Source: a virus
Taxonomy: Duplodnaviria; Heunggongvirae; Uroviricota; Caudoviricetes
DNA: 16,004 bases
Reading direction: 5' to 3' (one strand)
Virus record (IMG/VR): IMGVR_UViG_2579778633_000006
The notes below the pieces were generated by a model. It was given only the letters and a program-made list of their open reading frames with translations. It searched no databases and was not told where the DNA came from. This document shows positions 10,543 to 15,628 of the stretch, piece after piece; the first letter of the stretch is position 1; every line of letters begins with the position of its first letter. Made by a program: the position numbers and the translations under genes.

Positions 10543-10568
10543 GGGGCTGTGCGCCCCGTTTTATTGGG
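10543..10568 (+). terminator. Intrinsic terminator after tail-fibre ORF
   Basis: GGGGC(10543-10547)-tgtgc-GCCCC(10553-10557) followed by GTTTTATTGGG. Confidence 0.5.
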
Positions 10569-10572
10569 TAGG

Positions 10573-10866
10573 ATGAAAATGGGTATAACACCTTTCCTTC
10601 ATGCACTTTGTGCTGTGGCTGCGCAGATACTGGTGGGGCTTTTTACCGGAAACTGGGTTTACGGAGCGATAGCCAGTTGTACGTTCTTCATTGCGGGCGA
10701 ACACACCCAAGCATAATATCGCTGGATTGAAATGTTCGGGCATGGCAAGCGGATTAACATGCCGTGGTGGGGCGGTTTTGATCCACGCGCATGGGATGTG
10801 GCAAGCCTGATGGATTTTGCTGTGCCGATGGTAGCGTGTCTTCTGATCTGGCTGTTGATCCGTTGA
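10573..10866 (+). pseudogene. Small membrane-protein gene interrupted by an in-frame TAA (10714-10716)
   Basis: Single reading frame from ATG 10573 to TGA 10864-10866 encodes MKMGITPFLHALCAVAAQILVGLFTGNWVYGAIASCTFFIAGEHTQA * YRWIEMFGHGKRINMPWWGGFDPRAWDVASLMDFAVPMVACLLIWLLIR; both halves look protein-like and are in the same frame. Confidence 0.35.
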
Positions 10867-10870
10867 ACAT

Positions 10871-10915
10871 AAAAAGCCGCAGCAACTTGCCATGGCAGGA
10901 TACTGCGGCTGGTTT
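10871..10915. terminator. Bidirectional intrinsic terminator between the small membrane pseudogene and the RT operon
   Basis: Stem GCCGCAG(10876-10882)/CTGCGGC(10903-10909); A5 on plus strand upstream gives a U5 run after the stem on the minus-strand (RT operon) transcript; TGGTTTGTG after the stem on the plus strand. Confidence 0.45.
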
Positions 10916-10973
10916 GTGAGTTTAAATAGTGTGTTTATTGCGATATATTTTAATGACTTAATGGATTACATAT

Positions 10974-12350
10974 CTATGATATTCCTGAAATATCCTCTTC
11001 AAGCTCTTTTACTGATTTCGCAATTTTAAATTTAAACTTCCTCTCTATTTCACTATTGCTAAGTTTTTTTTCCTTCTCTTTACCTATCCACATAGAAACA
11101 AGTTCTCGTTTCTGAGATATATGTAGATTGTCAAAGTTAGGTATGTATTTAAAAGTCTCCGCTCTACCTCTGCGGAGTTCATAGAAAGTTTTAATCAAAG
11201 ATTTTGGTTTTATTTCTGATGAAAGGCCGAATCGGCGGATAAGATTATTGATAGTATGATTAACAGAGCGAAGTTGAGCTGTTGAGGTTATTTGTGAGAA
11301 GTACGATACCCATCCCAATCGTTTACCTTCAAACACACATCCCGTAATTCTGAGATTTAGTTTCCACTGACAATATGCAACAGCTCGTTCTTTATCACGC
11401 TTACTTTTAGCTTGTAGTAGAGCGTGCCTATATGCAGTAAAAATTTTTGCTAAGGATGACTCAAATCTAAGAATGCTCTCATGTTTTATCAATAATTCTC
11501 GATTTTCTATGTGGTATCCCAAAAAGTTAAAACTTTCATCCAAACTGCCTACTTTGGATTTTGAGTTCTCTTCATTTAATGGATGTGGGTTTAAATTTAA
11601 TGATTGAAGCTTATCAATGATATGAGAAGCTATTTTTGTTGCTTGATATTTTGGTGTTAAAATAAGAATGTCATCAACGTATCGCATGTACCATATGTCA
11701 TGCATTTTATTGATTTCATCATCGAAATTAGATAGTGATATTTCAGCTAAAATGTTTGATATCGCTAATCCCTGAGGTACTCCTCTGGTATTATTAGGGA
11801 TACCTTTGCTTCCTGTGGTTCCACTTACAGTAGGCACGATTAATGATGATGTTATTAACTGTCTAATTTCTTTTTTTCTAATTTTATTTTTTATTGCATT
11901 AATTATCAATTTATGTTCAATTGAAGGATAGAAACTTTTAAGATCTATTTTTGCATATTCAGCATATAGACTGTTGTTTAATGCTTCTTTCAATGAGTCA
12001 ATTACTGTATGTGGTAGTTTTAATCTGGACTTAGGATATATTTCCGTAAGGCATTCACAGAGAGCTCTAAGAGTAATTCTGTCCCTAGCAGTTGGTATGG
12101 AAATCTGTCTGGGTGTAGAGTTAGCGCCTTTAGATATTAATTTTTCTTTATATGCTGTAAATTTGTAATTGCCAGAATTAACCTTTTCAAAAATGAAAGT
12201 GATCTCATTTTTTATTGTCAAATCAAGTTTTGATGGGCGAATCCGATCTATGCCAATCGCTCCTGATTCTTTGATTTTTTCAGAGTATACTTTTAGAAGA
12301 TTTTTTTTCGAGAATGACTTTTTAAAAATTCTGCTTGCAGTCATAGTCAA
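10974..12350 (-). CDS. Reverse transcriptase (bacterial defence-type RT; retron-like vs UG/Abi-like unresolved), 458 aa with C-terminal extension
   Basis: RT motifs in order: GIDRIRP; RQISIPTARDRITLRAL; IDLKSFYPSIEH; GVPQGLAISNILAEI; YMRYVDDILIL (YxDD catalytic box); FNFLGYHI. AT-rich gene; start overlaps upstream TM-protein gene by ~29 nt. Confidence 0.85.
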   Translation of the reverse strand: MTMTASRIFKKSFSKKNLLKVYSEKIKESGAIGIDRIRPSKLDLTIKNEITFIFEKVNSGNYKFTAYKEKLISKGANSTPRQISIPTARDRITLRALCECLTEIYPKSRLKLPHTVIDSLKEALNNSLYAEYAKIDLKSFYPSIEHKLIINAIKNKIRKKEIRQLITSSLIVPTVSGTTGSKGIPNNTRGVPQGLAISNILAEISLSNFDDEINKMHDIWYMRYVDDILILTPKYQATKIASHIIDKLQSLNLNPHPLNEENSKSKVGSLDESFNFLGYHIENRELLIKHESILRFESSLAKIFTAYRHALLQAKSKRDKERAVAYCQWKLNLRITGCVFEGKRLGWVSYFSQITSTAQLRSVNHTINNLIRRFGLSSEIKPKSLIKTFYELRRGRAETFKYIPNFDNLHISQKRELVSMWIGKEKEKKLSNSEIERKFKFKIAKSVKELEEDISGIS

Positions 12351-12873
12351 TCCAAAGATATATTAATGGGAGTATATAAAGTGCGGCAGTAATAAATATT
12401 CGAAGTAATATCCATAAAATAACAATTATTTTTTCTTTTTGTGTGGGGATCCTCGTCTTAAGTCCAACTTGAGTTACCCTTGAAATTTTATCATCTATGT
12501 CACGGTGATTCTCAACCTCATTGAGCAAATTAAAATATTTTTCTTTCTGTTCAAGAGATAACTGTTGACTGGTGGTAATGTCAAAATAGAGTCGCTGTAG
12601 TGCAATATAATTCCTTCTCATGGCTATTGCTCGACCACGAAAATCTAGGTTAGATACGATCAGAGAAATACCCAGTAGAGCCACTGAAAGTATCGCCGCA
12701 ACGACATCTGTATTATCTCCTAGAACCTTTGGAAATCGCAACGTTACAATTGAAAGTACCGCACTCAATATAGCATACCAAACGAGGATAAATTGAGAGT
12801 GTTTTTCAAGCCATTCTAGTCGATGGTGCGCTTGGATACGTGCTTTATATGTAAACCAAATATTGTCATGCAT
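12322..12873 (-). CDS. Multi-TM small protein, SLATT-like (putative membrane effector of the RT system)
   Basis: 183-aa ORF; AGGA RBS 5-8 nt upstream of ATG 12871-12873; hydrophobic helices FILVWYAILSAVLSIVTL, VVAAILSVALLGISLIVS and C-terminal IIVILWILLRIFITAALYILPLIYLW separated by a charged helical region; 3' end overlaps RT start. Confidence 0.6.
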   Translation of the reverse strand: MHDNIWFTYKARIQAHHRLEWLEKHSQFILVWYAILSAVLSIVTLRFPKVLGDNTDVVAAILSVALLGISLIVSNLDFRGRAIAMRRNYIALQRLYFDITTSQQLSLEQKEKYFNLLNEVENHRDIDDKISRVTQVGLKTRIPTQKEKIIVILWILLRIFITAALYILPLIYLWIDYDCKQNF

Positions 12874-12893
12874 AAAAGATCCTTTTTAAAAGC

Positions 12894-13028
12894 GGAAGGG
12901 GCAGGATATATTGGAACCGTTGAACATCCTGCCCGGCAGGATCAGTGAGCATAAGCTCAACAGTAAAATATTACTGTTCATTATCAGAGCCGCCCTTGCA
13001 TGCGCAAGAGGAAAAACCTGCCCCATCC
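12894..13028 (-). other. Palindrome/inverted-repeat-rich non-coding region upstream of the TM-RT operon (candidate structured ncRNA and/or operator array)
   Basis: 12-bp flanking inverted repeat GGAAGGGGCAGG (12894-12905) vs CCTGCCCCATCC (13017-13028), 1 mismatch, 111 bp apart; perfect 17-bp palindrome ATCCTGCC-c-GGCAGGAT (12926-12942) plus an extra GGCAGGAT copy (12900-12907); CAGTA-aaatat-TACTG (12961-12976); CTTGC-atgc-GCAAG (12995-13008). Confidence 0.3.
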
Positions 13029-13095
13029 CTTTGAATTATTACAATTTAATGATCTTAAAGTCAATACAAGTGAATGGTGTCCAGAGATGATGAAC

Positions 13096-13344
13096 TTAAT
13101 GAACAAACCACTCGTCAGCAGACTCCCAGGTATCTTTCAGAGTCTCCTGAACAAAAGTTTTAGCTGAATCTTTATCAGCGGTGCGCGTAACAGAAAGGCC
13201 ATCGTTGCTGGTGGCTTTTACGATCACTTCTACATCGTCATAACGTTTACTGATGCGTCGGGTTAATTCTTCCTTTAACGCATCCACAGCACCGGTTGGC
13301 ATTTTAGTCATTTTTTCTTTGGCTATGCAGATTTCAATACGCAT
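13096..13344 (-). CDS. dinI: DinI-family protein (SOS-inducible RecA modulator homolog)
   Basis: 82-aa ORF; MRIE..IAK...GA.DAL..EL.RRI...LSV....QET...WESADEWFV match the E. coli DinI pattern as I recall it; two LexA boxes immediately upstream. Confidence 0.8.
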
Positions 13345-13358
13345 AAAAGTCCCCTACA

Positions 13359-13402
13359 CTGTATTTGTATACAGTATTATTTTTAACTGTATGGATAAAC
13401 AG
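13359..13402. promoter_or_regulatory. Two tandem LexA (SOS) boxes upstream of the dinI-family gene
   Basis: CTGT-ATTTGTAT-ACAG (13359-13374) and CTGT-ATGGATAA-ACAG (13387-13402); both fit CTGT-N8-ACAG; located 15-58 bp upstream of the dinI start, overlapping the 3' flank of the integrase stop. Confidence 0.7.
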
Positions 13403-13404
13403 TG

Positions 13405-14502
13405 TCAAGAGGTCTTATTTCTGCTCCTTTGGAGTTCTTCAAAACGATTATGTAAAGATTTCGGATACAGTTCGGTATATACCTGCCATAGCACGTTTAA
13501 TGAACGATGCCCTGTAACCTGAGCGACTTCCTCAATACTAAAACCAGCCTCAAATAAGCGACTTGCCCCTTCTCTACGCAAATCATGGTATCTCAGATCT
13601 TTAATACCTAATTTGCTTCTTACCCTCTGAAATCCTGCGGTAACAGAAGTGCTGTTATATGGAAAAATGAATTCTGATTTTTTGGGTTGTCGCTGGACGA
13701 TATCCCAGGCTTCCCCAAGCAAGGCAACTTTCATATGGTTGCCTTCCTTTTTACGTGGATCTTTCCTGTCTCTTACTAGTATAGATTTTTGTTCCTGGTC
13801 GAGATCTTCCCATCGTAACCGGCATACTTCTCCGATTCGCATACAGGACCACACAGAAAATTTGAGGATATCAACGAACGGAATTTTTGAGCATTTATGA
13901 GTAGATCGTTGTTGAAGGCCTTCAATGAGCATGTTCAGTTCATCAGATGCTGGTCTACGATTACGACGGTTTGATTTACCAATCAAACCGAGTTTAAGTA
14001 GATATGGACGAGCGCTTTTCGCCGGGTTTGATGTGTAATTGATTCCGTATACAGGTTTTGCCGCATCCAGAACACTGCCAAGATAACTAACATCGTGGCT
14101 GACTGTTGCTGGGCCTGCACCAGCGTTGTTTCTTAGCCTGCAATGTTCAATTACGTCATTTTCTGTCAGTTCAGATAGTTTGATCGCGGAGATGTCACTA
14201 TCCATAAGCAGTTCCAGCACATATCTTTTAGTACGGCCTGCTTTACCTCCGGCATTTGGGTCATTTAAATATTTGTGTAGTAAGTCACGGACTGTAAGTC
14301 CGTCAACAGCATTTGATGATGGAATGCCATATAGATCTAATTCCATCACTTTCTGTGCGCCCCATGTTTTGGCATGAGCATGTTTAGGGAATGTTTTGCT
14401 TTCCCTGTAAGTGATAACACCTTTTTCTTTGATAATCACATTACAGCGATAGCGTGGTGTGCCATCGGATTTTAGTCGTTTCTCTATGTTATAGTACGCC
14501 AT
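13405..14502 (-). CDS. int: Tyrosine-type site-specific integrase (phage integrase family), adjacent to and divergent from dusA
   Basis: 365-aa ORF; C-terminal catalytic signatures MRIGEVCRLRWEDLD (Arg), YHDLRREGASRL (HxxR), GHRSLNVLWQVYTEL (His/Trp and Tyr). Confidence 0.9.
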   Translation of the reverse strand: MAYYNIEKRLKSDGTPRYRCNVIIKEKGVITYRESKTFPKHAHAKTWGAQKVMELDLYGIPSSNAVDGLTVRDLLHKYLNDPNAGGKAGRTKRYVLELLMDSDISAIKLSELTENDVIEHCRLRNNAGAGPATVSHDVSYLGSVLDAAKPVYGINYTSNPAKSARPYLLKLGLIGKSNRRNRRPASDELNMLIEGLQQRSTHKCSKIPFVDILKFSVWSCMRIGEVCRLRWEDLDQEQKSILVRDRKDPRKKEGNHMKVALLGEAWDIVQRQPKKSEFIFPYNSTSVTAGFQRVRSKLGIKDLRYHDLRREGASRLFEAGFSIEEVAQVTGHRSLNVLWQVYTELYPKSLHNRFEELQRSRNKTS

Positions 14503-14590: not shown

Positions 14591-15628
14591 ATGCACGATA
14601 ATCCTGAAACACAGAAAACTAATCAAACCAGCGTGATGCCTGAAAAAACTGGCGCTTACTGGAGTTCTCGGTTTAGCATTGCTCCTATGCTCGACTGGAC
14701 GGACAGACATTGCCGCTATTTCTTGCGTCTGCTTTCCCGCAATACGTTGCTGTATACCGAAATGGTGACCACAGGGGCGATTATTCACGGTAAAGGTGAT
14801 TACCTGGCGTACAGTGAAGAAGAACATCCGGTAGCGTTGCAACTCGGCGGTAGCGATCCGGCGGCGCTGGCACAGTGTGCGAAGCTGGCAGAAGCGCGTG
14901 GATATGATGAGATCAACCTGAATGTCGGCTGCCCGTCTGACCGGGTGCAGAACGGCATGTTTGGTGCGTGTCTGATGGGTAATGCGCAGCTGGTTGCCGA
15001 CTGCGTGAAAGCGATGCGCGATGTGGTGTCGATTCCAGTGACGGTGAAAACGCGTATTGGCATCGATGACCAGGACAGCTATGAATTTCTCTGCGATTTC
15101 ATCAACACCGTTTCCGGCAAAGGCGAGTGTGAGATGTTTATCATCCACGCACGTAAAGCCTGGCTTTCGGGGTTAAGCCCGAAAGAAAACCGTGAAATCC
15201 CGCCGCTCGATTATCCGCGTGTGTATCAACTGAAGCGTGACTTTCCGCATCTGACAATGTCGATTAACGGTGGTATCAAGTCGCTGGAAGAGGCCAAAGC
15301 ACACCTGCAACATATGGATGGCGTGATGGTCGGGCGCGAGGCGTATCAGAATCCGGGTATTCTGGCGGCGGTAGACCGGGAGATCTTTGGTTCCTCGGAT
15401 ACCGATGCCGATCCAGTGGCGGTAGTGCGCGCCATGTATCCGTACATTGAGCGTGAACTCAGCCAGGGGACGTATCTCGGCCATATTACCCGGCATATGT
15501 TGGGCTTGTTCCAGGGTATTCCTGGCGCGCGGCAGTGGCGGCGTTATTTAAGTGAAAATGCCCATAAAGCGGGTGCAGACATTAATGTGCTGGAACACGC
15601 GCTCAAACTGGTGGCGGATAAGCGTTAA
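14591..15628 (+). CDS. dusA: tRNA-dihydrouridine synthase A
   Basis: 345-aa ORF with conserved Dus-family sequence ([30 protein letters not shown], catalytic Cys region); followed by pspG as in E. coli. The 5' end may be element-derived; true start may lie downstream of 14591. Confidence 0.9.

Follow-up and report, generated by a model that had tools for sequence, protein, structure and literature searches.

A probable DRT10 (UG17) template RNA upstream of the SLATT-reverse transcriptase cassette of an Escherichia coli prophage

The locus

The DNA considered here is the 16,004-nt viral record IMGVR_UViG_2579778633_000006 (Caudoviricetes), the whole of which is called the window. Its minus strand carries a cassette composed of a gene for a two-transmembrane SLATT_5 effector and a gene for a reverse transcriptase (RT), preceded by a 222-nt intergenic region and by a gene of the DinI family (Table 1). 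The two cassette genes follow one another in the order SLATT-RT and overlap, since the SLATT open reading frame (ORF; 12322-12873) extends beyond the RT start at 12344. The cassette proteins match only SLATT_5 and RVT_1, and the neighbouring genes encode DinI and an integrase; in PADLOC the RT reaches 526 bits with the UG17 model and at most 127 bits with every other model. The intergenic region is the subject of this work: very probably, it represents the minus-strand non-coding RNA (ncRNA) component of a DRT10 (UG17) anti-phage system and provides the adjoining RT with a telomerase-like template.

UG17, or DRT10, has been described in two preprints as a tripartite anti-phage system formed by an ncRNA, a SLATT protein and an RT (Tang et al. 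2025, PMC12632851; Sanchez-Nieto et al. 2026, 10.64898/2026.04.29.721553). According to both preprints, the ncRNA is 137-143 nt long, is located just upstream of SLATT and consists of a basal stem enclosing several inner stem-loops (SL). As primer the RT uses the serine at its own C terminus (S456 in Eco3DRT10), and the resulting complementary DNA (cDNA) is made of tandem repeats; the template is found in a loop 3' of the last stem-loop and has an A-B-A' arrangement, in which the first template bases, A, recur downstream as A' and allow the cDNA to realign. In the case of Eco3DRT10, for which phage defence was demonstrated, the RNA binds the RT, being recovered by RNA immunoprecipitation sequencing (RIP-seq), and templates a protein-linked, RNase-insensitive cDNA with a 9-nt tandem repeat; mutations of the template reprogram the product and scrambling of SL5 abolished the repeat products (PMC12632851). 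The window RT displays YVDD at residues 222-225 and terminates with ...EEDISGIS; the last residue, Ser456, is conserved without exception in 20 homologues, whose identity goes down to 59%, and its role in priming is assumed from Eco3.

Table 1. Features of the locus; nt numbers refer to the predicted RNA
Feature	Coordinates	Strand	Evidence or remark
Predicted DRT10 (UG17) ncRNA, 137 nt (nt 1 = 13028, nt 137 = 12892)	12892-13028	minus	covariance model, conservation
Predicted ncRNA promoter: -35 TTGACT 13064-13059, 18-nt spacer, TG-n-AATAAT, -10 at 13040-13035	13035-13064	minus	predicted start ~13028
SL1 5' arm (GGAUGGGGCAGG), nt 1-12	13017-13028	minus	arm of 12-nt inverted repeat
SL1 3' arm (CCUGCCCCUUCC), nt 124-135	12894-12905	minus	overlaps third 8-mer copy (nt 122-129)
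SL2 hairpin, nt 18-38	12991-13011	minus	97.9% of cells paired, 4/8 pairs compensatory
SL3 hairpin, nt 51-70	12959-12978	minus	a small palindrome of the original prediction; 6/8 pairs changed on both sides
SL4 hairpin GAGC-UUAU-GCUC, nt 71-82	12947-12958	minus	A-U/G-C swap 32 vs 31 times; 94% of cells paired
SL5 hairpin (17-bp palindrome), nt 87-103	12926-12942	minus	95.2% of cells paired, 3/7 pairs compensatory
Template loop, nt 104-123: GUUCAACGGUUCCAAUAUAU	12906-12925	minus	20 nt, single-stranded
Predicted template A-B, CAACGGUUC, nt 107-115	12914-12922	minus	positional homology to Eco3 template CAAUGAUUC
Alignment segment A', CAAU, nt 116-119	12910-12913	minus	
Intergenic region, 222 nt	13095-12874	minus	
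SLATT_5 two-transmembrane effector gene, 183 aa	12322-12873	minus	Pfam SLATT_5 1.3e-28; PADLOC RTasSLATT 1.5e-56
UG17 (DRT10) RT gene, 456 aa, ATG at 12344	10974-12344	minus	PADLOC RT_UG17 1.2e-158, full length
Terminator-like hairpin + U5 after RT gene	10870-10910	minus	-21.3 kcal/mol, z = -4.25
DinI-family gene	13344-13096	minus	upstream neighbour of intergenic region
Tyrosine integrase	14502-13405	minus	adjoins dusA

Repeats in the intergenic region

A repeat search of the region gave back the 8-mer on which the original prediction had been built: GGCAGGAT/ATCCTGCC forms a perfect 17-bp palindrome, with two arms of 8 nt (12926-12933 and 12935-12942) that are 100% complementary and separated by 1 nt, and GGCAGGAT is found once more at 12900-12907; a 9-nt inverted pair also connects 12899-12907 with 12926-12934. 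The repetition of the 8-mer is not due to chance, since five copies are present in the window against 0.41 expected and none of 200 shuffles reached five; three of the five copies are clustered within 43 nt. The 12-nt inverted repeat reported to flank the region lies where it had been placed, with 111 nt between its arms, but its complementarity is not perfect: 11 of the 12 positions (92%) pair and one would be a U-U mismatch in RNA. Inside it, the two small palindromes mentioned in the prediction are indeed present, as SL3, where more palindromes occur, and as the GAGC/GCUC pair of SL4; the number was too low, however, since a CCUCUUGC/GCAAGGG inverted pair (~12991-13011), SL2, brings the inner hairpins to three. 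The distal arm of the 12-nt repeat contains an additional GGCAGG (13017-13022), which brings to four the mutually complementary segments of the region.

The 222-nt intergenic strand folds better than its shuffled versions (z = -3.8). The region has to be read as the reverse complement, because the SLATT-RT cassette and the RNA are on the minus strand. Its description as non-coding on both strands is essentially right: the ORFs of 40-59 aa that can be drawn are only mechanical and their frame is not conserved, as homologues differ by loop insertions and deletions of 1, 2, 4 and 7 nt.

Fold, conservation and covariation of the RNA

Homologous loci were collected from genomes, metagenomes, viral contigs and annotated E. 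coli records, for a total of 163. With an nhmmer sequence profile, 116 of them proved to contain the element, in every case 14-32 nt before SLATT. Each of the remaining 47 is either truncated by the end of its contig or has an RT with an identity of only 24-40%. Thus, conservation next to homologous RT genes, on which the prediction had been made to depend, is found in all the 116 loci that are eligible, i.e. those whose upstream sequence is long enough and whose RT is at least 50% identical.

Structure was examined on a MAFFT alignment of 77 distinct homologues, to which the pairing values of Table 1 also refer. Standard pairs occupy 93.9% of the pair cells, and compensatory changes, on both sides of the pair, affect 25 of the 39 pairs (316 cells); neither the pairing nor the compensation value was reached in any of 500 shuffles, and in a control where partners were slid by 1-3 columns pairing dropped to 50-55%. 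The covariation that had been proposed as a check is therefore clearly present. The 12-nt repeat corresponds to SL1, the basal stem, with 10 of 12 pairs compensatory and 93% of cells paired; SL1 also appears at P > 0.5 in the individual folds of all 77 homologues. Unguided RNAalifold recovered SL1, SL2, SL3 and SL5. In place of SL4, this program proposed a helix between nt 39-42 and nt 71-74, which was rejected because it shows no two-sided changes, whereas SL4 exchanges A-U with G-C. For the 137-nt RNA of the window, the fold made of SL1-SL5 is the minimum-energy structure (-57.2 kcal/mol, P = 0.98), and its architecture agrees with a published dot-bracket structure of an Eco1-type ncRNA.

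In this fold the palindrome forms SL5, where the apical bases open to leave 7 bp and a 3-nt loop; the argument that its 1-nt spacer would favour protein binding over a hairpin is thus not sustained. SL5 also accounts for the repeated 8-mer: in Enterobacterales its stem is extended (AUCCUGC...GCAGG) and resembles the SL1 stem (GGCAGG/CCUGCC), hence the repetition. Pseudomonas, Stenotrophomonas and Bordetella have instead a short SL5, AUCC(C)-loop-(G)GGAU, and in them the 8-mer is not repeated. Lying immediately 5' of the template loop, SL5 is presumed to be the template-boundary element.

Several observations define the strand and the start of the RNA. One U-G pair of SL2 is found unchanged in each of the 77 sequences, and further G-U pairs are numerous, a pattern that fits only an RNA from the minus strand; a covariance model derived from the alignment reaches 137.3 bits on this strand vs 13.4 bits on the plus strand. 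A promoter scan found a putative sigma-70-type promoter with 10 of 12 matches to the consensus and a TG extension, and in 60 of 76 homologues a -10-like hexamer precedes the first SL1 base by 6-7 nt; Sanchez-Nieto et al. reported that the ncRNA is expressed independently, from a promoter of its own (10.64898/2026.04.29.721553). At the other end, the predicted RNA stops 18 nt before the SLATT_5 start. Sequence, conservation, covariation, promoter placement and strand of the element are established here by sequence analysis. The covariance model gave no match in 30 distant UG17-like loci, with RTs 24-37% identical and mostly around 33%, in agreement with the published statement that DRT10 ncRNA models work only within subtypes.

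Relation to Eco3DRT10 and template alleles

The window system is closely related to Eco3DRT10. The Eco3 RT (OKX54664) is deposited with 458 aa, including two spurious N-terminal residues (MTMTASR...), its true length being 456 aa (PMC12632851 supplement); the window RT ORF has the same two-codon artefact of a TTG start and the same terminal serine, and over the 399 residues compared the two proteins share 394 (~98.7%). They also have in common an E. coli prophage location, the ncRNA-SLATT-RT locus with overlapping genes, a 137-nt frame, five stem-loops and a template at nt 107-119. Loci with near-identical proteins (1-2 substitutions) were classed by Tang et al. as ncRNA-associated DRT10 systems (PMC12632851).

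The ncRNAs of two E. coli alleles, CE10 and CFIAFB, differ from that of the window only at two template bases, with one more difference in SL2 for CE10. In both, nt 107-115 read CAAUGAUUC and nt 116-119 read CAAU, exactly the published Eco3 template and alignment segment; when nt 1 is set at 13028, the residues named by Tang et al. (C107-C115 as template, U110, C116, A117, U119, 137 nt) fit CE10 exactly. On the basis of these comparisons, which establish the relationship at the sequence level, the window RNA is an allele of the Eco3DRT10 ncRNA. Its loop reads CAACGGUUC-CAAU, i.e. an A-B-A' arrangement CAA-CGGUUC-CAA(U) over nt 107-119, and departs from the Eco3 template by two substitutions, U110C and A112G. 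As a consequence, the identity between A and A' is reduced from 4 nt in Eco3 to 3 nt in the window, where the fourth position would be a dG-rU wobble, and the predicted repeat changes from GAATCATTG to GAACCGTTG. Direct repeats of at least 4 nt are enriched in these loops, being present in 84% of homologous template loops vs 25% of shuffled ones.

The window allele is the commoner one. Among 5,426 complete E. coli genomes, 188 contain the cassette, with 90-100% identity; in all of these carriers the ncRNA is left without annotation, and its identity is no lower than 95%, or 97% in each of the rows sampled. Within E. coli the template (12914-12922; loci L045, L047 and L048) is polymorphic: the Eco3-type CAAUGAUUC is found in 34 of the 188 and not in the other 154; all the sampled non-Eco3 E. 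coli alleles carry CAACGGUUC, which is found in related Enterobacterales loci too.

The two substitutions also create a 4-nt direct repeat, GUUC...GUUC, with a period of 8, so that the repeat unit could differ from the predicted one. These natural substitutions might move the repeat from the 9-nt register expected by homology to one of 8 nt (CGTTGAAC); such a unit would result if the RT read as far as G104, whereas the Eco3 data argue for a boundary at C107.

Proposed mechanism

From homology with the Eco3 allele we infer the transcript ends, RT binding, protein priming, repeat synthesis and defence function of the window system. Transcription from the sigma-70-type promoter would start at ~13028 and produce an RNA of ~137 nt, in which the SL1 basal stem encloses SL2-SL5 and the 20-nt template loop is exposed between SL5 and the 3' strand of SL1. 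The RT would bind this ncRNA, prime DNA synthesis from its own Ser456 and copy CAACGGUUC from nt 115 to nt 107, up to the boundary set by SL5, stopping 3 nt short of this hairpin. The 3' end of the cDNA (...GTTG-3') would then unpair and pair again with C116-A117-A118, and U119 would form the dG-rU wobble. Repetition of this cycle, as in telomerase, would lead to long single-stranded tandem repeats, which are predicted to be (GAACCGTTG)n because the window template differs from that of Eco3 at two bases. This repeat DNA would somehow control the SLATT membrane effector, which would execute defence.

The UG17-A ncRNA of Escherichia sp. E3659 (10.64898/2026.04.29.721553) belongs to a tripartite ncRNA-SLATT-RT locus with its own promoter and tandem-repeat cDNA; its SL1 basal stem is needed for RNA stability and its template lies in a loop flanked by short direct repeats. 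It differs in its length of 143 nt, six predicted stem-loops, template ACUUAUUACU and 7-nt repeat AGTAATA, and, as judged from the probe and the template in the paper, its sequence is not alignable with that of the window clade. The RT of DRT9 (UG28), a class 2 UG RT too, has upstream of it a structured ncRNA of comparable architecture, and its synthesis is protein-primed and repetitive (PMC12632851); however, it primes from a tyrosine and copies a conserved poly-U template into poly-dA. The analogy with telomerase RNA, drawn by Tang et al. (PMC12632851), concerns the repeated copying of a short template, the realignment of the product with a repeat further downstream and the limit set to copying by a helix located 5' of the template. 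In telomerase, differently from DRT10, where a protein serine is used, the primer is the chromosome 3' end; moreover, the DRT10 RNA is bacterial and only ~137 nt long, the RT, of 456 aa, is devoid of TEN and TRBD domains and the product is free single-stranded DNA used in immunity.

Prophage setting

As seen from 13405-14502 and 14591-15628, a degraded lambdoid prophage inserted at dusA carries the dinI-ncRNA-SLATT-RT module at its integrase end, next to tail-fibre genes. The same module, with a frameshifted dinI, is found in strain MS6193 (L045) next to prfC and beside different tail-fibre genes; the two settings indicate that it moves between prophages as a unit. LexA-box-like sites (CTGT-N8-ACAG) at 13359-13376 and 13387-13404 overlap the dinI promoter (TTGACA 13408-13403, minus strand), and dinI is oriented towards the DRT10 cassette. 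From the dinI stop (13096) to the ncRNA promoter, the scan predicts no terminator-like site; this, together with the LexA-box-like sites, suggests that SOS induction could drive read-through into the ncRNA.

Downstream of the RT gene, a consensus terminator scan made no call, because the hairpin loop is too long; folding reveals the hairpin. A 13/14-nt copy of the template-loop sequence (ATGTTCAACGGaTC) is found at 10859-10872 (minus strand), just 3' of this hairpin, and the terminator loop itself (10894-10902, minus strand) holds TATCCTGCC, the SL5/SL1 motif. A second GGCAGGAT/ATGTTCAACGG copy is present near 10860-10901; the ATGTTCAACGG copy occurs only in the dusA-prophage context and not in MS6193, and this second copy of 8-mer and template is probably incidental, due to chance or to a recombination scar. 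The 110-aa ORF that follows the RT gene (10561-10893, minus strand) has no Pfam or PADLOC match; it is a RefSeq pseudogene with an internal stop and is not part of the cassette.

Alternative explanations

Two interpretations had been offered at the outset, a structured ncRNA with terminal pairing that is used by the RT and an operator array. The latter would make the 8-mer and the 17-bp palindrome the sites of a dimeric regulator of the SLATT-RT operon, and it can count on a perfect 8+1+8 palindrome with a third copy of the 8-mer 18 nt away, on the over-representation of the 8-mer in the window and on the LexA-type operators that the neighbouring dinI-like gene does have. However, what homologues keep is the complementarity and not the sequence: the upper SL5 stem is CUGC/GCAG, CC/GG or CCCC/GGGG, its loop is of variable length, the centre of the palindrome is altered from CCGGG to CCGAG in the allele of E. 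coli MS6193, and the perfect repetition of the 8-mer is confined to the Enterobacterales clade. Furthermore, the sites would lie 87-135 nt downstream of the predicted start (the palindrome at +87 to +103), within the transcribed RNA, and a Pfam search of the cassette proteins found no helix-turn-helix or other DNA-binding gene; an operator array is thus very improbable. The ncRNA interpretation was correct in kind, the 12-nt repeat being the basal stem of a covarying RNA; its comparison with retron msr-msd holds for a structured template RNA and fails for the family, since the RT is UG17 and not a retron RT. A true retron, where an RNA with paired a1/a2 ends is copied from the 2'-OH of a branching G into multicopy single-stranded DNA (msDNA), would agree with terminal inverted repeats that enclose a structured RNA beside an RT gene and with the name retron-type RT that some databases give to relatives; retrons also share with DRT10 the templating of cDNA for defence. 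Yet no retron RT appears among the 25 best PADLOC models, where RT_UG17 is followed by DRT3, DRT2 and other UG models, the region shows no match to a retron msr family of Rfam, and the near-identical Eco3 system produces a protein-linked 9-nt tandem repeat, different from a single msd copy primed through a branched 2'-5' bond; a retron is extremely unlikely. The hairpins might also belong to a plain 5' untranslated region of the SLATT-RT mRNA, or to a dinI terminator region, and act in stability or termination without templating. In this respect, the SL1 3' arm is followed by GC-UUUU, the RNA ends very close to the SLATT start codon, and the SLATT-RT mRNA probably starts at the ncRNA promoter, as no separate SLATT promoter is evident. 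Such a leader would not explain the strong conservation of the single-stranded loop and of its A-B-A' pattern, nor the RT binding and templating documented for the Eco3 RNA; the two roles are compatible, as a leader may double as template RNA. A leader with no templating role has very little probability.

The four complementary GGCAGG/CCUGCC segments make a second fold possible, and raise the question of a bistable switch, in which the active fold with SL1 and SL5 would alternate with one (nt 7-12 with 89-94 and nt 95-103 with 122-130) that hides SL1 and closes the template loop, the choice being set by the 5' end, for instance by SOS read-through from dinI. In the 137-nt RNA the alternative lies only 3.3 kcal/mol above the minimum, and it becomes dominant in silico (P 0.97-0.998) for RNAs beginning at the dinI stop codon, which read-through may generate given the lack of a predicted terminator; RNAs from the ncRNA's own start retain the canonical fold (P 0.94-0.98). 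Folding of the whole 222-nt region likewise gave the alternative pairing, which proved misleading, as the mature 137-nt RNA and all homologues prefer SL1 and SL5. Against a switch, the alignment test found the 3' alternative helix 62% paired, and its longer form without compensatory change; the alternative has a probability of ~0 in every homologue from outside E. coli, Enterobacterales with an extended SL5 among them, and does not exceed 0.12 in the E. coli alleles. What is predicted for 5'-extended RNAs changes with the context (P = 0.12 when the read-through is longer), and the evidence is thermodynamic only. A switch of this kind is quite improbable; little more is conceded to the modelled possibility that the E. 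coli template RNA is bistable, active when made from its own promoter and in the alternative form, devoid of SL1, when made by read-through from dinI, with the 8-nt register as a lesser idea. If true, bistability would couple the availability of the DRT10 template to the DNA-damage response.

The template RNA of a DRT10 system remains by far the best explanation, although some points weigh against it. For the window allele itself, expression, RT binding and cDNA are only predicted. The mapping on Eco3, a strong inference, was obtained from the residues and the motif named in the text and not from an alignment. The longest direct repeat in the window loop is GUUC...GUUC, with its period of 8, and not CAA...CAA, with a period of 9. 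An Rfam scan of 10800-13500 in E-value mode returned sub-threshold noise and no confirming family, the best match in the intergenic region being SNORD43 with 17.9 bits vs a threshold of 45, and that in the ncRNA proper reaching 15.1 bits vs 70. Finally, the two preprints disagree on whether the cDNA rises or falls on infection.

Significance

The RNA class, its structure and its mechanism are already known from the two preprints of 2025 and 2026, where they are described for an almost identical E. coli allele. The ncRNA is absent from Rfam 15 and from RefSeq annotation, hence annotation pipelines miss it, and no published experimental test of the window-type template allele was found. What the window adds is this annotation gap in Rfam and RefSeq and a natural polymorphism of the template, CAACGGUUC: since the commoner E. 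coli allele has a template other than the studied one, DRT10 repeat sequences are polymorphic within a single species. The element would be the RNA subunit of a bacterial, telomerase-like machine that synthesizes DNA repeats for phage defence, a topic of high current interest.

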